DNA from: an uncultured Bacteroidales bacterium
GTDB lineage: Bacteria; Bacteroidota; Bacteroidia; Bacteroidales; UBA10428
Length of the DNA: 64,000 nucleotides
Reading direction: 5' to 3'
Assembly (NCBI GenBank): GCA_963705125.1
Contig: CAVPIY010000005.1
Location: 20,793-84,792, forward strand
This document shows positions 14,718 through 24,096 of the stretch, piece by piece. Under the pieces are notes generated by a model. The model ran no database searches. It had not been told where the DNA came from and saw nothing but the letters and a program-made list of their open reading frames with translations. Every line of letters starts with the position of its first letter. The first letter of the stretch is position 1. The translations under genes were made by a program, and so were the position numbers.

Positions 14718-16025
14718 ATGACTTCCTTCAGTGTAACCGGTGGCAGGCGGCTCAGTGGACAGATCACACCTCAGGGTGCAAAAAATGAAGCCTTACAGGT
14801 GATCTGTGCCACACTGCTGACTCCGGAGAAGGTGATCATCCACAATATTCCGGATATCCTGGACGTAAGGAATCTGATCGAGCTGATCGGATCACTTGGT
14901 GTTGAAGTGATCAGGCTCTCAGAGCACTCCTATAGTTTTACAGCACACGAAGTGAACATCGATTTCCTGCTTAACAATGAATTCAGGCAGCGAAGTGGCA
15001 GCCTGCGGGGCTCACTGATGATCATCGGTCCGCTTCTGGCCCGGTTTGGCAAGGGCTATATTCCGCGTCCGGGTGGCGATAAGATCGGCCGCAGACGGAT
15101 GGATACGCATATTAACGGATTGGTGAGCCTGGGTGCCACTTTTGATTATGAATATACCCAGGAGTTCTATAAATTACATGCCGAAAAACTCACCGGGTGC
15201 AACCTGCTGCTTGAAGAAGCTTCCGTTACCGGGACAGCAAATATTCTCATGGCTGCTGCACTGGCCAGGGGAAAAACCACCATTTACCATGCTGCCTGCG
15301 AACCTTATGTCCAGCAGCTTTGTCACATGCTCAACCGTATGGGCGCCAGGGTATCGGGTATCGGATCAAACCTGCTTGCCATTGATGGGGTGGATCACCT
15401 TGGAGGTTGTGAACACACCCTGTTGCCGGATATGATTGAGATTGGCTCATTTATTGGACTGGCAGCCATGACGCGCTCGGAGATTACCATAAAGAACGTG
15501 TCCTGGGAAAACCTCGGCATTATTCCGGCCGTGTTTCGCAGGATCGGAATTGCATTCGAACGGCGCGGAGATGATATTTATGTTCCGGGAAAGCCCCATT
15601 ATCAGGTGGATACTTTTATCGATGGCTCCATTCTCACCATTGACGATGCTCCCTGGCCGGGATTTACGCCCGATCTGATCAGCGTGGTTCTGGTGGTGGC
15701 AACCCAGGCCCGAGGCAGTGTATTGATACACCAGAAGATGTTCGAAAGCCGGCTTTTTTTCGTGGATAAGCTTATTGATATGGGCGCCCAGATCATACTG
15801 TGCGATCCGCACAGGGCTACCGTGATCGGGCAGGATAATAAAATAAAGCTTAGAGCTACAACCATGACCTCTCCCGATATCAGGGCCGGAGTGGCCTTGC
15901 TTATTGCAGCCCTTTCAGCTGAAGGCACCAGCATCATCCATAACATTGACCAGATTGACCGGGGTTATGAGCAGATAGATATCCGTCTTAATGCATTGGG
16001 TGCTGACATACACCGTATTGGATGA
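14718..16025 (+). CDS. murA: UDP-N-acetylglucosamine 1-carboxyvinyltransferase
   Basis: 435-aa ORF with QGAKNEALQVICATLL, PGGDKIGRRRMDTH and FTPDL..V motifs. Length is typical of MurA. Confidence 0.92.
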   Translation: MTSFSVTGGRRLSGQITPQGAKNEALQVICATLLTPEKVIIHNIPDILDVRNLIELIGSLGVEVIRLSEHSYSFTAHEVNIDFLLNNEFRQRSGSLRGSLMIIGPLLARFGKGYIPRPGGDKIGRRRMDTHINGLVSLGATFDYEYTQEFYKLHAEKLTGCNLLLEEASVTGTANILMAAALARGKTTIYHAACEPYVQQLCHMLNRMGARVSGIGSNLLAIDGVDHLGGCEHTLLPDMIEIGSFIGLAAMTRSEITIKNVSWENLGIIPAVFRRIGIAFERRGDDIYVPGKPHYQVDTFIDGSILTIDDAPWPGFTPDLISVVLVVATQARGSVLIHQKMFESRLFFVDKLIDMGAQIILCDPHRATVIGQDNKIKLRATTMTSPDIRAGVALLIAALSAEGTSIIHNIDQIDRGYEQIDIRLNALGADIHRIG

Positions 16026-16078
16026 CCCATATATTGCATTACCTGTTCATATCAGGGATTGAATAATAAGAATGTATC

Positions 16079-18088
16079 ATGTTTCTTTTTCTGGTTGTTT
16101 CCGTTCTGATCTTCACCATCTTAATTGTCCTGGTTAAGGAAAGGCACAAAGGTACAGTGGCATTATCCGGTGTACTGGTGAATGCAGTACTCAGCTCATC
16201 GATTGCCATTGGTGCCCTGCAGGGACATCCCTGGTCTGAAACGGTTCAAGGCGGGAATGTATTCGGAGAAATACCGATCAGGGTCGATGGACTTTCAGCC
16301 TGGTTCATCCTGCTGACCAATTTCACTATGATTACCGGAATCTTGTATGGCCGTCAATACCTGAAGAAATGCAATGCTCTGCCGGCAAACCTCAGTCTTC
16401 ATTATATTAGCTACATCCTGAATCAGGCAGCACTCACCGGTGTGTTCTTTATCCAGCACGGGCTGGCCTTTATCTGCACATGGGAGATCACAGCGCTGTC
16501 CGCCTTTATTATGGTGATCTTTGAACATGGCCGGATGGAAACACTGAAAGCCGGTATCAATTATCTGATCCAGTCACATATCAGCATCATCTTCCTTACC
16601 CTTGGCTTTATCTGGGTATATTCTTCCACCGGTTCATTCGATTTCTCAGCCATAAGCGATTACAGCAATGCGGGTGCACCGGAAGCCGGATTGATTTTGT
16701 TCCTTGCCTTTTTTGTCGGTTTTGCCATCAAGGCCGGTTTTGTACCCTTTCATACCTGGCTGCCACTTGCCCATCCCGCCGCACCCTCCCATGTTTCCGG
16801 TATCATGTCGGGTGTCATCATTAAGGCCGGAATTTATGGCATCCTGCGGATGCTTATGCTGATCCCTGATAATCATCTTGTGCTGGGTTATTGTATTCTC
16901 ATCATATCCTTTATCTCGGGTATTTATGGTGTCATGCTTGCTATTCTTCAGCATAATATTAAAAAACTATTGGCCTATCACAGCATTGAGAATATAGGCA
17001 TCATCGGTATCGGGATAGGCATTGGGGCCATCGGAACCGGACTGGGACAGCCCTTTCTGGCTTATGCCGGATATGGGGGGGCCCTGCTTCATACACTGAA
17101 CCATTCCCTGTTCAAATCCCTGCTGTTTTACAGCACCGGAAATGTTTACCAGGCCACCCATTCCGTTCATATTGAACACATGGGCGGACTGATCAAAAAA
17201 ATGCCCCGGACAGCCATTCTCTTTCTGTTAGCTGCACTGGCCATATGCGGACTTCCGCCCTTTAACGGTTTCATTTCCGAATTTCTCATTTATACCGGTC
17301 TGTACGGGGCAATGGGCACTCATCAAATATCAGCTGTTGTGATAGTCCTTGTCATCGGAGGTCTGGCCTTGATAGGTGGTCTGGCCCTGCTTTGCTTTAC
17401 CAAAGCATTCGGCATCATTTTCCTGGGAACAGCAAGAAACCGGCAAAGCGGTTTGGCTACGGAAGCCTCTTCAGCTATGATGTATCCCAATTATCTGGTA
17501 GCCCTTCTGATCATGATGATCGGACTGTTCCCCGGACTTTTCATCAACCTGCTCCAGAAACCGGTTGAGGGTCTTTCAGGCATTACACTGACCCTGCAAT
17601 ATTCCGAACTTACAGATCTGATGCAAAGGATCAGTTACTCCGTATGGGGTCTGATCCTGCTAACTGTTGTTCTGTTTTACATCCGGAAAATCGTGACCGG
17701 CAGGAAACCAGTCAACATGCAACCTACCTGGGGTTGCGGTTACACGACTGCATCACCTGCCATGCAATATACAGCCAATTCATTTGTGCGTTCTTATACC
17801 AAGCTCATCAAACCCCTTATTATCATGAATAAGACCAGGGATGAAATTCCGGATATCATCCCGGCCCCCATCCTGGCCGAAACGCATTATCACGACAAAA
17901 TTGAAACGGGTCTGATCGACTGGCCGGTAAGAAACCTGAAAGGATTTCTCAGGAGGTTTAAAATCCTCCAGAACGGCAGTGTACAGTTTTACGTGCTGTA
18001 TGGTGTGGTCTTTATTGCCATCAGCATTACCATACCGCTCATCTTTTTTGCAGGACAATACCTGATACAATTGCTGAAACAGTTATAA
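16079..18088 (+). CDS. HyfB/HycC-like antiporter-type membrane subunit (NuoL/M/N family) of a hydrogenase-related complex
   Basis: 669-aa polytopic ORF. It retains the conserved TM5 Glu (TWEITAL, Glu136 at 16484-16486) and the TM7 Lys context (AIKAGFVPFHTWLP, Lys218 at 16730-16732). The HyfB-type C-terminal extension is present (PTWGCGY...MQYTANSF). Confidence 0.85.
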   Translation: MFLFLVVSVLIFTILIVLVKERHKGTVALSGVLVNAVLSSSIAIGALQGHPWSETVQGGNVFGEIPIRVDGLSAWFILLTNFTMITGILYGRQYLKKCNALPANLSLHYISYILNQAALTGVFFIQHGLAFICTWEITALSAFIMVIFEHGRMETLKAGINYLIQSHISIIFLTLGFIWVYSSTGSFDFSAISDYSNAGAPEAGLILFLAFFVGFAIKAGFVPFHTWLPLAHPAAPSHVSGIMSGVIIKAGIYGILRMLMLIPDNHLVLGYCILIISFISGIYGVMLAILQHNIKKLLAYHSIENIGIIGIGIGIGAIGTGLGQPFLAYAGYGGALLHTLNHSLFKSLLFYSTGNVYQATHSVHIEHMGGLIKKMPRTAILFLLAALAICGLPPFNGFISEFLIYTGLYGAMGTHQISAVVIVLVIGGLALIGGLALLCFTKAFGIIFLGTARNRQSGLATEASSAMMYPNYLVALLIMMIGLFPGLFINLLQKPVEGLSGITLTLQYSELTDLMQRISYSVWGLILLTVVLFYIRKIVTGRKPVNMQPTWGCGYTTASPAMQYTANSFVRSYTKLIKPLIIMNKTRDEIPDIIPAPILAETHYHDKIETGLIDWPVRNLKGFLRRFKILQNGSVQFYVLYGVVFIAISITIPLIFFAGQYLIQLLKQL

Positions 18089-18090
18089 TC

Positions 18091-19005
18091 ATGCAAGTAC
18101 TAAGCCTGTTGCTGATCATCATGACCAGTCTGTTCTTTACCGGGATCGTCATCCGGGCAAAAAGCATATTCTCAGGCGGAAAGGGCCCCGGGATACTCCA
18201 GCCAATGCGGGACATAATCCGTTCATTCCGGAAAGGATCGGTTTTCAGCCAAACCAGCAGCATCATTTTTCAGCTGGCCCCTGTCATCTATTTTGCCAGC
18301 CTCCTCATGGCCATCCTGTTTATACCTTTTGGCAATCAGCCGGGGATCATTTCATTCAAGGGGGATTTTGTGCTGTTTGCCTATATACTTGCATTGGGTA
18401 AGTTCTTCATGATCATTGCAGCGCTCGATACAGGAAGCAGCTTCGAAGGCATGGGAGCCAGCAGGGAAGCTCTCTTCTCCATGCTGGTTGAACCTGCTTT
18501 TTTTATGCTTATGGGCTCACTGTCTCTGCTAACCGGATATACTTCCTTTGCGGGTATATTCAGTGCCCTGCATTTCGGCTCCTACACGTCTTACGGTATA
18601 GGCATTCTGGCTTCATTTGTGTTCATCACCATTGCACTCATTGAAAACAGCCGCATGCCGGTGGATGATCCGAAAACCCACCTGGAACTGACCATGGTGC
18701 ATGAAGTGATGATCCTCGATAACAGCGGATTCGACCTCGGACTGATCATGTATGCCATAAACCTCAAATTTGCCCTGTACGGGGCCATTATTGCCAATTT
18801 TTTTCTTACCCCCGGATTTCAGCTGTATTATTCCATTCCGATTTATATTGCGGTGCAGGTGGTTTTTGCTATCCTGGTCGGTGTAATCGAATCATTTTCC
18901 GCGCGGTTCAGGATGAATCACAACCCGCAGTTCATCCTGATGTTCACTTCCATCTCCCTGCTTATTTTCCTGGGTGTATTGCTGATGCTTGGTAAAATCA
19001 TATAA
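18091..19005 (+). CDS. HyfC/HycD-like (NuoH-family) membrane subunit
   Basis: 304-aa polytopic ORF starting 2 nt after the preceding stop. NuoH/HycD-like motifs are present (GPGILQP.RD, ENSRMPVDDPKTHLELTMVHE). Confidence 0.8.
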   Translation: MQVLSLLLIIMTSLFFTGIVIRAKSIFSGGKGPGILQPMRDIIRSFRKGSVFSQTSSIIFQLAPVIYFASLLMAILFIPFGNQPGIISFKGDFVLFAYILALGKFFMIIAALDTGSSFEGMGASREALFSMLVEPAFFMLMGSLSLLTGYTSFAGIFSALHFGSYTSYGIGILASFVFITIALIENSRMPVDDPKTHLELTMVHEVMILDNSGFDLGLIMYAINLKFALYGAIIANFFLTPGFQLYYSIPIYIAVQVVFAILVGVIESFSARFRMNHNPQFILMFTSISLLIFLGVLLMLGKII

Positions 19006-19016
19006 CCCGGATAACC

Positions 19017-19646
19017 ATGATTAACATTTTGCTGATAACCTTTACAATTACCCTCATATATATCGGCATGGCGAACCGGTTATTGACCTATATCCGGCTT
19101 ATCGCATTTCAGGGATTTCTGCTTTTCGGGGTGGCCTTTATTGAACTGATCGAGATCAATATGATAAACCTCATCTTTGTTCTGCTCGAGACCATTGTCA
19201 TCAAAGCCATTGCCATTCCGTTTTTCCTTAAATATATTCTCGACCGGAACAACATCACCCGGGAAGCTGAACCCTTTGTATCCAATTTCGTCTCTGTTGT
19301 CATCATAACAGGCATTATACTGGGATCATTTTTCCTGTCCGGCCTCGTGCAGGAAAACCAGGTCGGAAACATGTATTTCACCGTAGCTCTCTCCGCCCTG
19401 TTTACAGGTTTGTATATCATCATAACCCGGCGTAAGATCATCACACATGTTATGGGCTATATGGTCCTTGAAAACGGTGTTTTTGTCCTTTCCCTGGCTG
19501 TAGGGAGTAAAATGCCCATGGTGGTCAACACCGGTATCCTGCTGGATATTTTTGTAAGTGTGATCCTGCTTGGCATTTTCGCGGATAAAATCGGAGATGT
19601 ATTTGATGAACAAGATGTTGGACAGTTAAGAAACCTGAAAGACTGA
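19017..19646 (+). CDS. HyfE-like (NuoK-related) small membrane subunit
   Basis: 209-aa hydrophobic ORF. Its position and size match hydrogenase-4 component E. Confidence 0.7.
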   Translation: MINILLITFTITLIYIGMANRLLTYIRLIAFQGFLLFGVAFIELIEINMINLIFVLLETIVIKAIAIPFFLKYILDRNNITREAEPFVSNFVSVVIITGIILGSFFLSGLVQENQVGNMYFTVALSALFTGLYIIITRRKIITHVMGYMVLENGVFVLSLAVGSKMPMVVNTGILLDIFVSVILLGIFADKIGDVFDEQDVGQLRNLKD

Positions 19647-19651
19647 ACAAT

Positions 19652-21091
19652 ATGCATGATATGATAATGGGAATTTATTTATCGGGTTCACTGTTCATTG
19701 GCCTGTTGTTCTATTTTCTGAGAAACCATATCCCGCAGATCTTGCTTGCCGGTTCTTTCATTTTGCTGCAAAGTACCCTGGCTGTATATGAATACTTGCA
19801 TCCCGGCTTCACCCAGCTTGTCTATTTTACACCGGATGCCCTTGCCATTCTTTTCCTGGTCGTCATCAGCATTGTTTGTATCCCGGCGTTTTATCACAGT
19901 TTTGTCTATTTCTCAAAGCATCCCTATAAACCCCGTGAACAGGGTATGTATTTTGCTGCCATGGTGGTACTTACCGCATCCCTGAGTGCTGCCTATTTGT
20001 CCAATCACATCGGCCTCACCTGGGTATTCGTGGAGCTGACAACCCTGAGTGCATCTGCCCTGATCTATCACCGGCGGAACAAACTGACCCTCGAAGGCAC
20101 CTGGAAGTATATCTTTATCTGTTCCATCAGCATAACCCTGGTATTTATCGGCGTGTTGTTTGTCACTGTCGCCGTGCAACAGCAAGGAATACATGATCTG
20201 TTTTACAAAGACCTGTCTCTTCATGCCGGAAGCCTTAATGTATTCTGGCTTAAGCTTGCGTTCCTTTTCATTTTTACCGGATTTACGGCAAAGGCCGGAC
20301 TCGTGCCCATGTATACAGCCGGCATCGATGCGAAGGATAATGCCCCATACCCGGCTGCCGCCCTGCTGGCGAGTGTGCTGATGAACGTAGGCTTTATCGG
20401 TATTTTCCGGTTTTACGAGATTACAAGCCATACCGCCATTTTTAGATGGACCAACAACATCGTACTGATCTCCGCCCTGTTATCTGTATTTGTGGCTGCG
20501 GTTTATATGCTACGGGTCAAGAACATCAAAAGAATGATGGCCTATTCTGGTGTTGAACACATGGGAATCGTGATGCTTGGACTGGCTGCAGGCGGTATTG
20601 GCTATTATGCGGCCATTCTTCACCTGGTATTGCATTCCTTTGCCAAACCCGCGCTTTTCTTTCAGTTCGGACAAATATACAGGACTTACGGCAGCAAGAG
20701 TGTGTATGATGTGGGGAATTACTTCAAATACAACATGACCGGCGCGCTTGTCTTGTTGATCGCCTTTTTTGTGATCACTGCCATGCCACCCTCCGGCATG
20801 TTTGTGAGCGAATTTCTTGTTTTCCGGTCTTTGTTTGAGTCGGGAAACCTATGGGTGCTTATCATCGTGCTGATATTGCTTACCACCATCATCTGGGCCT
20901 TCGGGAAAAATGTTTTTAAAATGCTGTTCATCAAACCCATCGATTTTGATGACACCAAGGTTGAGCCTGTCCCGTTTTCGGAATCCATAAGCCAGTTTTT
21001 GCTTCTTGCCCTGGTGGTTTATTTAGGGCTGACTCCTCCGGATGAGCTGGTAGTCCTGATCCGGGAAGCCATTGGTACTTTGCCGCACTGA
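19652..21091 (+). CDS. HyfF-like antiporter-type membrane subunit (NuoM/N family)
   Basis: 479-aa polytopic ORF with a conserved Glu context (WVFVELTTLS) and a Lys context (FTAKAGLVP). Confidence 0.8.
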   Translation: MHDMIMGIYLSGSLFIGLLFYFLRNHIPQILLAGSFILLQSTLAVYEYLHPGFTQLVYFTPDALAILFLVVISIVCIPAFYHSFVYFSKHPYKPREQGMYFAAMVVLTASLSAAYLSNHIGLTWVFVELTTLSASALIYHRRNKLTLEGTWKYIFICSISITLVFIGVLFVTVAVQQQGIHDLFYKDLSLHAGSLNVFWLKLAFLFIFTGFTAKAGLVPMYTAGIDAKDNAPYPAAALLASVLMNVGFIGIFRFYEITSHTAIFRWTNNIVLISALLSVFVAAVYMLRVKNIKRMMAYSGVEHMGIVMLGLAAGGIGYYAAILHLVLHSFAKPALFFQFGQIYRTYGSKSVYDVGNYFKYNMTGALVLLIAFFVITAMPPSGMFVSEFLVFRSLFESGNLWVLIIVLILLTTIIWAFGKNVFKMLFIKPIDFDDTKVEPVPFSESISQFLLLALVVYLGLTPPDELVVLIREAIGTLPH

Positions 21092-21114
21092 TTCATGATA
21101 AAACAACTGCCACA

Positions 21115-22608
21115 ATGAATTCTTTATCAGTAAAAAATAACGAGTCAGTTCCCATATCGGATATCCCGGTCCTGCCTTACGATGATTTTCTGGAGATAAA
21201 TACAACCCGGGCCAAAGATGTATACGTTCACTGTGTGATCTACTTTGGCTGGCCGGCCGGTGAAAAGATCAGATTGTTCTGCTGCATGGCAGATGATGCG
21301 AAAGGAATTCTCATGATCTCTTCATCTGAAATAAAAAAAGGGGAAACTTATCCCTCGTTTACTGCAAAACATCTGGCCTTTCACCCTTTTGAACGGGAGA
21401 TGCACGAGATGCATGGGATTCAGTATGCGGATCATCCGTGGCTGAAACCCCTTCGTTTCCCGGCTTACCATGCGGGCAATGGGCTGTCGATGGCACAATA
21501 TCCTTTCTACCACATCGAGAGCGAGGAGCTGCACGAGGTGGGTGTTGGGCCGATCCATGCGGGGATCATTGAACCCGGGCATTTCCGCTTCATCTGCAAC
21601 GGGGAACAGATCCTGCACCTCGAGATACAACTGGGTTACCAGCACCGGGGTATCGAGCAACTTTTCCTCGATCGGAAAACCTTGCTGCAGCGCACAATTC
21701 TGGCCGAAAACATTGCCGGTGATTCGGTGGTGGGGCACACCACGGCCTTTGCCAATCTGTGGGAAAGCCTTTGCGGCTTTCTGCCGGATGACGATATTCT
21801 GTACGCCAGAACAGTGGCAGCCGAGCTGGAAAGAATAGCCATTCACACCGGTGACCTGAGCGCCATTTGCACAGATATTGCTTACCAGCTGGGAAGTTCG
21901 GTATTTGGCAGACTCCGGACACCGGTAATCAATACCTTTCAGGAATGGTGCGGTAACCGCCTGGCAAAGGGGATCATCCGGGCGGGCATGAACCGGTATC
22001 CGCTGAACCAAGTGATGGCTGATGCCCTCATCCGGCTGTTCGATAATTATGAACCCGATTTTAATGAAATGTACCAGCGAATGAAAACCCTGCCCAGTAT
22101 CCTGGCCCGGCTGGAAAGGACCGGCACTGTAACTGCGGATCACGCTGAACGGATTGGGGCCGTCGGGTTAGTCGCCAGGGCATCGGGCCTGATGCGTGAC
22201 ATCCGGTGGACACATCCCTATCTGCTTTACGGTCAGCTGCATCATCAGCCGATCATCAAGCACCATGGCGATGTATATTCAAGAACCCAGATCAGGAAGC
22301 AGGAGATCACCCAATCGATAAAGTATATGCGTGACCTGGTAAAGGAAATACCTGATTGTCTGACCGATGCAACGATCAAATCACCCCTGCCCGATTCATT
22401 CGTCATTTCCCTTACCGAAGGCTGGCGGGGCGAAATATGTCATTGTGCCATCACCAATGGATCAGGAGATCTTGCACTATATAAAATCAAAGACCCTTCA
22501 CTGCACAATTGGCTGGCCCTTGCACTGGCCGTCAGGAACAATGATATTTCTGATTTTCCGATCTGCAATAAAAGCTTTAACCTGAGCTATTGCGGGCACG
22601 ATTTATAG
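21115..22608 (+). CDS. HycE/HyfG/NuoCD-like large subunit lacking the NiFe-binding cysteine motifs
   Basis: 497-aa ORF with a NuoC-like N-terminus and a NuoD/HycE-like core (GPIHAGIIEPGHFRF, LGYQHRG). Where group-4 hydrogenases have R.CG.C...H, the sequence reads ENIAGDSVVGH (Ala201, Ser204, His208; 21715-21738). The C-terminus reads FNLSYCGHDL-stop instead of DPC..C..R/H plus an extension. Confidence 0.8.
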   Translation: MNSLSVKNNESVPISDIPVLPYDDFLEINTTRAKDVYVHCVIYFGWPAGEKIRLFCCMADDAKGILMISSSEIKKGETYPSFTAKHLAFHPFEREMHEMHGIQYADHPWLKPLRFPAYHAGNGLSMAQYPFYHIESEELHEVGVGPIHAGIIEPGHFRFICNGEQILHLEIQLGYQHRGIEQLFLDRKTLLQRTILAENIAGDSVVGHTTAFANLWESLCGFLPDDDILYARTVAAELERIAIHTGDLSAICTDIAYQLGSSVFGRLRTPVINTFQEWCGNRLAKGIIRAGMNRYPLNQVMADALIRLFDNYEPDFNEMYQRMKTLPSILARLERTGTVTADHAERIGAVGLVARASGLMRDIRWTHPYLLYGQLHHQPIIKHHGDVYSRTQIRKQEITQSIKYMRDLVKEIPDCLTDATIKSPLPDSFVISLTEGWRGEICHCAITNGSGDLALYKIKDPSLHNWLALALAVRNNDISDFPICNKSFNLSYCGHDL

Positions 22609-22656
22609 GACTTCCAGAAACTGTAACCATAGCCGCTAATAGAAAAAAACGAAACC

Positions 22657-23406
22657 ATGATCTCTGATATCAAGATATTAATCCATCAGGGGAAACAGTA
22701 TATACCCGATATAACCACGGCCGGCGTGCCCGGTATTTTCCGGGGAAGGCCTGTTATTTCATATGAAAAAACAGATGTGAACCAACTGGTGGAATTATGT
22801 CCCACCGGGGCCATCGCTCCTGATCCGTTGCGCATTGATCTGGGAAGATGTGTTTTCTGTGGCGAGTGCCAGTTTGCTTGCCCTTCCGGGATCACCTTCA
22901 CCAAAGATTATAAAATGGCTTCCTGTTCACGTGAAGACCTGATTATACATGAAGGCCGGAATGAACCCATAACCATCCGGCCTGAACAGGTCCGTAAAGA
23001 GATCCGTAGATATTTCGGGCGATCGCTTAAATTGCGTCAGGTTTCAGCAGGTGGTGACAACAGCTGTGAATGGGAGCTGAATGCTGCCGGGAATGTGAAT
23101 TTTGATATGGGGCGGTTTGGGATTGAATTTGTTGCTTCACCCCGCCATGCCGATGGTATTGTAATCACCGGACCCATTACCCGGAACATGTCGGAACCCT
23201 TACAAATATGTTATGATGCGGTGCCTCTTCCGAAAATTGTCATCCTGGCCGGTACCGATGCCATCAGCGGGGGTATTTTTGCCGGGAGTGGAGCGCTCGA
23301 CAGGTCATTTCTCGAAAGGTACCCTGTGGATCTTTATGTTCCGGGAAATCCGGTACACCCGCTCACTTTCATAAACGGAGTGCTCGGTTTAATCCGTACC
23401 GGATAA
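22657..23406 (+). CDS. Fusion of a degenerate ferredoxin-like (HycF/NuoI-like) domain with a HycG/NuoB-like small subunit lacking 3 of 4 cluster cysteines
   Basis: 249-aa ORF. The N-terminal part has a lone ELCPTGAI plus one full CVFCGECQFACP motif. The C-terminal part has NuoB/HycG signatures (RFGIEFVASPRHADGIVITG, PKIVILAG, ISGGIF, DLYVPG). The canonical Cys positions read Asp134 (23056-58), Cys137, Asp201 (23257-59) and Asn231 (23347-49). Confidence 0.8.
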   Translation: MISDIKILIHQGKQYIPDITTAGVPGIFRGRPVISYEKTDVNQLVELCPTGAIAPDPLRIDLGRCVFCGECQFACPSGITFTKDYKMASCSREDLIIHEGRNEPITIRPEQVRKEIRRYFGRSLKLRQVSAGGDNSCEWELNAAGNVNFDMGRFGIEFVASPRHADGIVITGPITRNMSEPLQICYDAVPLPKIVILAGTDAISGGIFAGSGALDRSFLERYPVDLYVPGNPVHPLTFINGVLGLIRTG

Positions 23407-24096
23407 CTGAATTAAATCGCCTATCCTGATCAGGTCAGCCTGATAATGCTTTTCAAGGATCATTCGGGGCAGATCAATTACCGGTCGTGCTGCCTTTTCA
23501 ATAATCGCGGTATCGGAAGTGGCAAGAACATCATAGGGCATATGTTTCAGGGCAAAATCGGCCGAACGGATCACCTGGCAGTTTCCCGCCAGGTGGCATT
23601 GTTCCAGCATGTCCCGGACAACCTGGGCATGTTTCTCACTGTGTGATACGGGAGAATCCAGAAATATATCCACGGAGGCAGGCTGCAAGGTTACCAGAAA
23701 ATCCATCAGCAGGGCAACACATTCACGGAAGGTGTTTTGATCCCGTAACCTGCCATGAAGCGAACCGGCGTCGCGCAGCAGATTATCGGTGGCGATAAAG
23801 GTAAAACGACCCAGCCGGTAGTTGAGCAGAGAAAATAGTACATTATAACCATCAACGGCCAGGGCAAGGCCTTTTGTTTCCTGTACAAGCCATGATTTTC
23901 TAATAGTTGATCTTTCACCGGAAGAAATTCCACGATAAAGCACCGTCCGTTGATCCCTGGTTAGCCTGTACCGGTCACCCACCAGCTTGATTGCCCCCCT
24001 TTCAGGATAATGCCGGTTCATCAGCCAGGCATAATCACGGCAGGCCTCCATGAAATCATTATTCAATAAATGCATTTTTTCATGCTTGAAGCACAA
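23389..24096 (-). CDS. Hypothetical protein, DUF434-like N-terminus with PIN/NYN-like C-terminal half
   Basis: 235-aa ORF. The LVGDRYRLTRDQRTVLYR segment recalls DUF434, and the C-terminal half has acidic-residue spacing reminiscent of PIN-like folds. The assignment is from memory only. Its 3' end overlaps the convergent small-subunit gene by 18 nt. Confidence 0.35.
   Translation of the reverse strand: MCFKHEKMHLLNNDFMEACRDYAWLMNRHYPERGAIKLVGDRYRLTRDQRTVLYRGISSGERSTIRKSWLVQETKGLALAVDGYNVLFSLLNYRLGRFTFIATDNLLRDAGSLHGRLRDQNTFRECVALLMDFLVTLQPASVDIFLDSPVSHSEKHAQVVRDMLEQCHLAGNCQVIRSADFALKHMPYDVLATSDTAIIEKAARPVIDLPRMILEKHYQADLIRIGDLIQLSGTD

Follow-up and report, generated by a model that had tools for sequence, protein, structure and literature searches.

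What does a hydrogenase-type complex do once the residues that should hold its active-site metals, and most of those that should carry its electrons, have been replaced? The question is raised by a 64,000-nucleotide stretch (the window) of an uncultured Bacteroidales bacterium (GenBank assembly GCA_963705125.1, contig CAVPIY010000005.1, positions 20,793 to 84,792 of the forward strand), where the fifth gene of a six-gene operon encodes a large subunit of the NuoC/NuoD type that lacks all four cysteines of the [NiFe]-hydrogenase site. The gene product is almost certainly EhrL, the large subunit of an energy-converting-hydrogenase-related (Ehr) complex, and such a complex is very probably incapable of making or using H2. 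On balance, the explanation that we favour is an ion translocator without H2 chemistry and not driven by electron transfer. The cysteine-less large subunit is in itself known biology; the one-cluster, six-gene complex to which it belongs appears, from its genes, to be a cofactor-poor variant of the class.

The replacement of the NiFe ligands can be followed residue by residue. Among all chains of the Protein Data Bank (PDB), phmmer placed Escherichia coli HycE (7z0s_E, 1e-32) and Pyrococcus furiosus MbhL (6cfw_L, 5e-30) above NuoD and NDUFS2 as relatives of EhrL. In an alignment made with phmmer and again with MAFFT, the latter using HycE, HyfG and NuoCD from the E. coli MG1655 record, HycE D-R-V-C241-G-I-C244-G-F-A-H248 falls on E198-N-I-A201-G-D203-S204-V-V-G-H208; at the other end of the protein, MAFFT sets D-P-C531-Y-S-C534-T-D-R537 against N489-L-S491-Y-C493-G494-H-D496-L497. 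All four cysteine columns are occupied by other residues, namely A201, S204, S491 and G494, and C493 stands one residue ahead of the last ligand column. An earlier note, made from the letters of this DNA, had read Ala201 (gcc, 21715-17) and Ser204 (tcg, 21724-26) at the two N-terminal positions, Ser491 and Gly494 at the C-terminal ones with Cys493 just before, and a conserved His208. The codons, with cac at 21736-38 for His208, and the HycE alignment agree with these readings, and His208 is present in 121/121 close homologues.

The rest of the protein is that of a well-kept group-4 large subunit. The framework motifs EPGHFRF and LGYQHRG are found, as are the Arg (R438) and His (H443, H208) of the hydrogenase catalytic site, and the column of E. 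coli NuoCD Y273, the quinone-binding Tyr of complex I, holds G202. In the profile comparison that the earlier note had proposed, EhrL matches PF00346 and PF00329 and gives no match to PF00374 even at E<=1, a model that does recognise HycE and the cysteine-bearing representatives P0210 and P0212. Mapping onto HycE and MbhL, likewise proposed there, confirmed the ligand columns, and an AlphaFold2 model built from 41 sequences (predicted local distance difference test, pLDDT, 92.6; predicted template-modelling score, pTM, 0.93) superposes best on HycE, with a template-modelling (TM) score of 0.90, followed by E. coli NuoCD (TM 0.86) and MbhL.

These substitutions extend over a large family. A search of 5.8 billion proteins with EhrL returned at least 8000 matches, the best 120 of which are 64-90% identical and about 500 amino acids (aa) long; with the window sequence they form our set of close homologues (n=121). 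Throughout this set E198, G202, D203 and H208 are invariant (121/121), position 201 is A, S or T, and T or S fills position 204 in all but two sequences (119/121). S491 and G494 are each kept in 120/121, and the ending KSF[ND]LSYCGHDL hardly varies. The NiFe cysteines were met in none of the close relatives, a result that the earlier note would have taken, had it been the opposite, for recent loss or sequencing error. An exhaustive phmmer search of 1.84 billion cluster representatives (clustered at 50% identity) gave 4865 matches, 545 of them below 1e-30. The best 150 of the 4865, which are 28-55% identical to EhrL and include proteins of Sulfurospirillum, a Thermoplasmatota archaeon and Candidatus Aquicultor, still show GD[ST] and a terminal KSFNLSY[CSA]G.DL in nearly all full-length members, and KSF[ND]LSY.G.DL followed directly by the protein end is kept across the whole Cys-less family. 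In these distant members C484 and C493 vary to S, A, N or I, and they were rejected as universal ligands of a replacement Cys-rich metal site in the pocket.

When one genome per GTDB species was scanned, the cassette turned up at 587 loci at least, almost all of them in Bacteroidota. Among the loci listed, the Bacteroidota carriers belong to Bacteroidales, Prolixibacteraceae, Lentimicrobiaceae, Saprospiraceae, Chitinophagales and Cyclobacteriaceae, the few others being Ignavibacteria, Acidobacteriota and Omnitrophica metagenome-assembled genomes (MAGs). The cultured Arcticibacter eurypsychrophilus MJ9-5 is among the carriers. Selection on the gene is strongly purifying, as the test suggested in the earlier note reveals: by the Nei-Gojobori method the ratio of nonsynonymous to synonymous substitution rates (dN/dS) of ehrL is 0.054 for an unsaturated pair of orthologues (L001-L002, dS 0.87) and 0.05-0.09 against the window, where dS is saturated. 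Across all six operon genes the ratio ranges from 0.02 to 0.12.

The natural end of EhrL is less telling than it first seems. The coding sequence closes with SFNLSYCGHDL and TAG (22573-22608, stop codon 22606-08), and L497 is aligned with HycE R537, the end of mature HycE, leaving no C-terminal extension; the extension is equally absent in 120/121 close homologues. The earlier note had stressed this stop at the mature end, without a cleavage peptide, and was right about its position; the feature is not specific. Six cysteine-bearing group-4 representatives (P0210, P0212, P0237, P0240, P0262, P0265) end at '..C.DR' or '..C.DL' with no extension. Because these true CxxC...CxxC relatives also lack it, the missing extension is ruled out as a diagnostic mark of a non-hydrogenase.

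The loss of the four NiFe cysteines is the defining hallmark of the already known Ehr class. Its members have been described as lacking these cysteines, with NuoC fused to NuoD, NuoI fused to NuoB, and homologues of HyfB, HyfF, NuoH and HyfE (PMC6349859, supplementary note 4). In Geobacter sulfurreducens the ehr cluster comprises seven loci, GSU0739-45, with EhrA-1, EhrC, EhrL and EhrS named (PMC7894505), and HydDB explicitly filters out Ehr, counting them as homologues without H2 metabolism (PMC5037454). According to papers of 2023 and 2025 Ehr has no CxxC motifs and its function is still unknown (PMC10284858; PMC12342949); the class has been reported in Nitrospira, Margulisbacteria, bacteria of the candidate phyla radiation (CPR) and Methylacidiphilum. 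The window protein shares with it homology to group-4 large subunits and NuoD, absence of the four cysteines, operon layout and grouping with Cys-less sequences. The class has reportedly been described since 2005-2013, by Coppi (2005) for the G. sulfurreducens ehr cluster and by Marreiros et al. (2013) in the key Ehr paper. No Ehr structure is found among the PDB chains searched, where the best identity is 22-25%.

What sets this complex apart lies in its small subunit. EhrS, whose best solved relatives are MbhJ (1e-23) and HycG (9e-20), joins half of a ferredoxin domain to a NuoB/HycG-type domain. By analogy with the 2x[4Fe-4S] ferredoxin fold, C48, C65, C68 and C71 would bind one cluster, which we take to be the equivalent of N6b, the medial cluster next to N2 in complex I. 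The first CxxCxxC is missing from the ferredoxin domain, and at the column of the eighth Cys, where the window sequence has C75, Phe is found in 65/76 sequences. At the former proximal site the ligand columns read D134 (23056-58), C137 (23065-67), D201 (23257-59) and N231 (23347-49), the last two aligned with NuoB C129 and C158, which are ligands of N2; they are kept in 76/76, 69/76, 75/76 and 75/76 sequences, respectively. Judged by its ligands, EhrS of the window clade has apparently lost the proximal and distal clusters and retains the medial one only.

Other Ehr complexes preserve much more of the chain. Four cysteines occupy the proximal site in 53/67 metagenome small subunits, and a full eight-Cys ferredoxin domain, hence three clusters, is present in most of the 18 that were inspected. 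According to a neighbour-joining tree of 99 large subunits, a quick distance tree without support values, all Cys-less sequences form one group with the CxxC-bearing representatives outside, and the one-cluster (D-C-D-N) sequences, 24 tips together with two truncated contigs, are monophyletic and branch from inside three-cluster Ehr. The signatures of the large subunit are the same in one- and three-cluster Ehr, with eight secondary positions differing consistently. Intermediate states also occur: two loci lack only the first CxxCxxC (L088, L093), one has C-A-S-W at the proximal site (L108), and three have lost ferredoxin cysteines within three-cluster lineages (L118, L135, L137). These separate partial losses suggest a repeated erosion of the electron chain.

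The membrane arm has kept the residues associated with ion translocation. Aligned with E. coli NuoL, NuoM, NuoN, HycC, HyfB, HyfD and HyfF, EhrA presents the canonical NuoL/M/HyfB residues E136, K218, K249, H338, H342, K346 and E401 (59-60/60 sequences), of which E136, K218, K249 and E401 presumably lie in transmembrane helices TM5, TM7, TM8 and TM12 as in the E. coli enzymes. In EhrD, E128, K214, N245 (also N in HyfF) and E387 recur in 76/76 sequences. The charged residues common to NuoH, HycD and HyfC (D41, E134, D192, E199, D210, R272, R274) are conserved in 67/67 EhrB sequences, while E152 and D177 of EhrC, invariant, correspond to HyfE E159 and D184. The pattern of Mrp antiporter subunits MrpA and MrpD (Glu in TM5, Lys in TM7 and in TM8, Lys or Glu in TM12, all conserved) recurs as E136/K218/K249/E401 in EhrA and E128/K214/E387 in EhrD.

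The genes ehrA-B-C-D-L-S (16079-23406) are separated by gaps of 2-48 bp. Gene order was compared over 80 genome loci and 80 metagenome loci, the latter from a scan seeded with a diverse alignment (large subunits 38-65% identical): in these 160 loci the order A-B-C-D-L-S is kept as far as the contigs reach, with L130 as the sole exception. Most relatives, including the closest (L001-L005), have a second HyfB-like gene (A1) upstream, whereas the window, L006 and L021 (A. eurypsychrophilus) have a single HyfB-like gene. Two tandem HyfB-like genes (e.g., L001:1000-2931), frequent in the metagenome loci too, bring the cassette to seven genes, the number of loci in the G. sulfurreducens cluster. There is no dedicated NCBIfam model for Ehr genes, as all NCBIfam scores fall under the curated cut-offs. 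No conserved redox-partner gene (formate dehydrogenase, NuoEF etc.) stands beside the cassette in the 80 genome and 80 metagenome loci, and tblastn gave no hyp or hycI match in the window or the 160 related loci, a search of the loci and not of whole genomes.

These observations can be brought together in the following proposal. At an early date the NiFe pocket would have been remodelled into a polar site free of cofactors (G202-D203-S/T204, H208, K486, S487, S491, Y492, D496 and the C-terminal L497). All Ehr have this site in common, and the complex could therefore neither make nor use H2. Without distal and proximal clusters, no continuous electron path would lead from the cytoplasm to the L pocket, and in the one-cluster clade electron transfer through the arm is probably absent. 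The complex would translocate H+ and/or Na+/K+ undriven by such transfer; its L/S head would cap or gate it through conformational changes, and the single remaining cluster would be a structural element or sensor. More specifically, the likeliest role of the one-cluster complex would be that of a secondary ion transporter (a cation/proton translocator), an idea that we advance tentatively and would rate at somewhat under even chances. The pocket signature is unchanged between three- and one-cluster lineages, and the role of the pocket should therefore be independent of the chain.

Among the alternatives, the most durable is a redox-driven ion pump, in which an external partner, for example ferredoxin or formate dehydrogenase ('FDH-Ehr'), would feed the lone [4Fe-4S] cluster, and electrons would pass to a quinone or other acceptor at or near the L/S/B interface. 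The FDH-Ehr hypothesis has been published (PMC6349859), and Ehr subunits were more abundant in formate-grown Geobacter (PMC7894505). The complete chain is kept in three-cluster Ehr, and the ligands of the lone cluster are invariant (76/76). In the window clade, however, the entry (distal) and exit (proximal) clusters are both gone, no conserved redox gene adjoins the cassette, and the NuoD quinone-binding Tyr column is Gly. The distance from the medial cluster to the pocket exceeds 20 Å in complex I, which is too far for physiological electron transfer. With entry and exit clusters missing, electrons would not be relayed to the L pocket, and a redox-driven pump is therefore unlikely in the one-cluster clade.

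Invariant ligands on a cluster without electron-transfer neighbours, together with intact membrane machinery, would also fit a redox- or O2-gated conductor, in which the lone cluster senses the redox state of the cell and switches a passive cation or proton transporter. The hosts, which comprise both anaerobic and aerobic Bacteroidota, agree with such a sensor. Yet a structural role accounts equally well for the conserved ligands, and three-cluster Ehr would need a different logic; we consider this reading distinctly unlikely. Turning from the cluster to the pocket, a non-redox catalysis coupled to ion translocation might act on CO2 or bicarbonate, as in CupA-NDH-1 or DAB, or perform another hydration or decarboxylation. 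PF00361 subunits coupled to CO2 hydration offer precedents, and the presence of the polar signature in all Ehr, irrespective of the Fe-S chain, implies a role independent of electrons. No universally conserved Zn-type ligand triad was found, however, C493 and C484 being as variable as described above, nor do the loci hold a carbonic-anhydrase-like domain or carbon-fixation neighbours, and this possibility appears very slim.

Two further readings hardly survive. A decaying gene, or cysteines lost to sequencing or assembly error, would account for the missing residues and nothing more, and is ruled out by an intact open reading frame (ORF) in a tight operon, the same substitutions in at least 587 species genomes and thousands of database proteins, a dN/dS of about 0.05 and a fold predicted with high confidence, all of which bears out the earlier note's view of a conserved divergent HycE/NuoD-type protein. 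A functional group-4 [NiFe]-hydrogenase with unconventional ligands could point to R438, H443 and H208 but is rejected with near certainty, since the CxxC ligands are absent, the only Cys near the site (C493) is S or A in many family members, the proximal cysteines have become D134/C137/D201/N231 with no proximal cluster left, there are no nearby maturation genes and no PF00374 match, and the literature treats Ehr as non-hydrogenases (PMC10284858; PMC12342949; PMC5037454).

Several points weigh against the ion translocator that we favour. The transporter role is one that we infer and nothing else, and we know of no experiment on any Ehr. Mrp antiporters work without an L/S head and possess MrpB, C, E, F and G, which the window complex lacks. 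A mere cap would not obviously need the strict conservation of D203, H208, R438, H443, K486, Y492 and D496, nor the four strictly kept cysteines of the remaining cluster; indeed, what the cap model chiefly leaves unexplained is that D134, D201, N231 and the pocket residues are nearly invariant. A metal bound at the nearly invariant D-x-x-C...D...N site might re-establish a redox path, and the genes of partner enzymes could lie in other parts of the genome. The assignment to Ehr itself follows published descriptions of the class, and orthology to the reference EhrL of G. sulfurreducens (GSU0744) is presumed; a search started from a three-cluster member gave only names from Myxococcota, Deltaproteobacteria and Acidobacteriota. 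Finally, the one-cluster variant was not found in the searchable literature, which did not extend to Marreiros 2013, and it may already have been described.

The Cys-less large subunit alone, a textbook hallmark of Ehr, would add one more uncharacterised member to the class. The wider interest comes from a single operon type whose lineages have three, two or one Fe-S clusters with an identical L-pocket signature, a natural experiment on the function of Ehr. This places a constraint on the 20-year-old question of that function, as the pocket of the one-cluster clade must play its role independently of electrons supplied through the chain. It is possible, though doubtful, that this clade, mostly of Bacteroidota, represents a natural redox-dead machine of the complex I/hydrogenase type, its whole head and membrane arm under purifying selection in hundreds of species. 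If so, and if ions are still translocated, the head of the superfamily would function without electron transfer, through gating or through ligand- or gradient-driven conformational coupling, and D134/C137/D201/N231 and D203/T204/K486/Y492/D496 would be new ion- or ligand-binding sites. Cultured Bacteroidota with the cassette, such as A. eurypsychrophilus MJ9-5, would provide a tractable system for studying the coupling of head to ion translocation without redox chemistry.

Further features of the locus are of a more local nature, and the coordinates are gathered in the table below. The NuoC-like domain of EhrL contains a set of residues (H39, C40, C56, C57, D61) whose Cys columns hold cysteine in 0-2% of three-cluster Ehr, and which may form a small metal or structural site. 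An antisense ORF of 273 aa inside ehrL (21322-22143, minus strand) shows no sign of being a gene; the codon usage of the coding strand most likely accounts for it. Upstream, murA directly abuts ehrA (junction 16025-16079); downstream, a DUF434/DUF5616 gene (23389-24096, minus strand) runs towards ehrS and shares the final 18 bases with it, an arrangement kept in L001 and L003-L006 and not in more distant relatives. Both genes flank the cassette in its closest relatives only. Many three-cluster cassettes have, just upstream, a gene with HTH_17 and PTS_EIIA_2 (PtsN-like) domains (L149:1292-1963 and about 20 other metagenome loci, such as L130:3301-3969 and L094:1247-1885), a possible regulatory lead for Ehr function. 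As this gene is absent from the window and its one-cluster clade, it is uninformative directly on the present locus.

Table. Genes of the ehr operon and sites within their products, with window coordinates
Feature	Coordinates	Strand	Basis
EhrA, HyfB/NuoL-type antiporter-like subunit, 669 aa	16079..18088	+	PF00361 2.7e-56; HyfB model 1.7e-141, under model cut-off
EhrB, NuoH/HycD-type membrane subunit, 304 aa	18091..19005	+	PF00146 9e-30
EhrC, HyfE-type membrane subunit, 209 aa	19017..19646	+	HyfE model NF008556 5e-18; NuoK-like C-terminal part PF00420
EhrD, HyfF/NuoN-type antiporter-like subunit, 479 aa	19652..21091	+	PF00361 1e-39; HyfF model 1.6e-64
EhrL, NuoC/NuoD-fusion large subunit without NiFe ligands, 497 aa	21115..22608	+	Subject gene
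Clade-specific H39-C40...C56-C57...D61 in NuoC-like domain of EhrL	21229..21297	+	Kept in 80-81/81 close relatives
Former NiFe motif of EhrL, N-terminal, N199-I-A201-G202-D203-S204-V-V-G-H208	21709..21738	+	Alignment to HycE R-V-C241-G-I-C244-G-F-A-H248
Former NiFe motif of EhrL, C-terminal, and natural end, C484-N-K-S-F-N-L-S491-Y-C493-G494-H-D-L497-stop	22564..22608	+	Alignment to HycE I-G-S-L-D-P-C531-Y-S-C534-T-D-R537
EhrS, half NuoI/HycF-type ferredoxin domain fused to NuoB/HycG-type domain, 249 aa	22657..23406	+	PF01058 2e-19; Fer4 7e-7
Retained [4Fe-4S] ligands of EhrS, C48 ('CP' Cys, first ferredoxin motif) and C65-x2-C68-x2-C71	22798..22869	+	All four in 76/76 sequences
Former proximal (N2-type) site of EhrS, D134-x2-C137...D201...N231	23056..23349	+	Aligned with HycG C48, C51, C115, C145 and with MbhJ and NuoB ligands

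Compared with known systems, the window complex agrees with published Ehr in its large subunit without NiFe cysteines, its NuoC-NuoD and NuoI-NuoB fusions, its HyfB-, NuoH-, HyfE- and HyfF-like subunits and its gene order across 160 loci. It differs from other Ehr, which keep the proximal cluster in 53 loci and, in most of those inspected, three clusters, in having a single cluster, six genes instead of seven (no first HyfB-like gene) and no preceding HTH-EIIA (helix-turn-helix, EIIA) gene. The E. coli complexes Hyf (hydrogenase-4) and Hyc (hydrogenase-3; formate hydrogenlyase, FHL, PDB 7Z0S) supply the closest solved relative of L, HycE, and the best membrane matches, HyfB, HyfC/HycD, HyfE and HyfF. 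The window complex, however, has none of their CxxC...CxxC ligands, HycI-cleaved peptide, or HycB, FdhF and Hyp partners, and carries the one-cluster EhrS fusion where they have a separate HycF/HyfH with two clusters and HycG/HyfI with the proximal one. P. furiosus membrane-bound hydrogenase (MBH, PDB 6CFW) provides the second-best solved relative of L (MbhL) and the best of S (MbhJ). MBH and its sulfur-reducing relative, the membrane-bound sulfane reductase (MBS), possess three [4Fe-4S] clusters and an Mrp-type Na+ module (MbhA-G), whereas the window complex has one cluster and no MrpB/C/E/F/G-like genes. Mbx/MBS is mentioned in the literature as a relative of hydrogenases that has ceased to produce H2.

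Complex I resembles the window complex in the fold of L, in a NuoD that also lacks NiFe ligands and ends '..DR/DL', and in the same ion-translocation residues. Where complex I has cluster N2 and a quinone-binding Tyr/His, however, the window complex shows D/C/D/N in the N2 ligand columns and Gly in the quinone Tyr column, which rules out a NuoB/NuoD module of complex I, and genes for NuoA, E, F, G and J are missing. Mrp antiporters, for their part, share PF00361 subunits with the same Glu/Lys pattern and move ions without redox input. They differ in having MrpB, C, E, F and G and no NuoB/NuoD/NuoH-like head, and the six window genes are all otherwise accounted for. The Ehr complex of this locus may thus work like Mrp though it is no member of the Mrp family.

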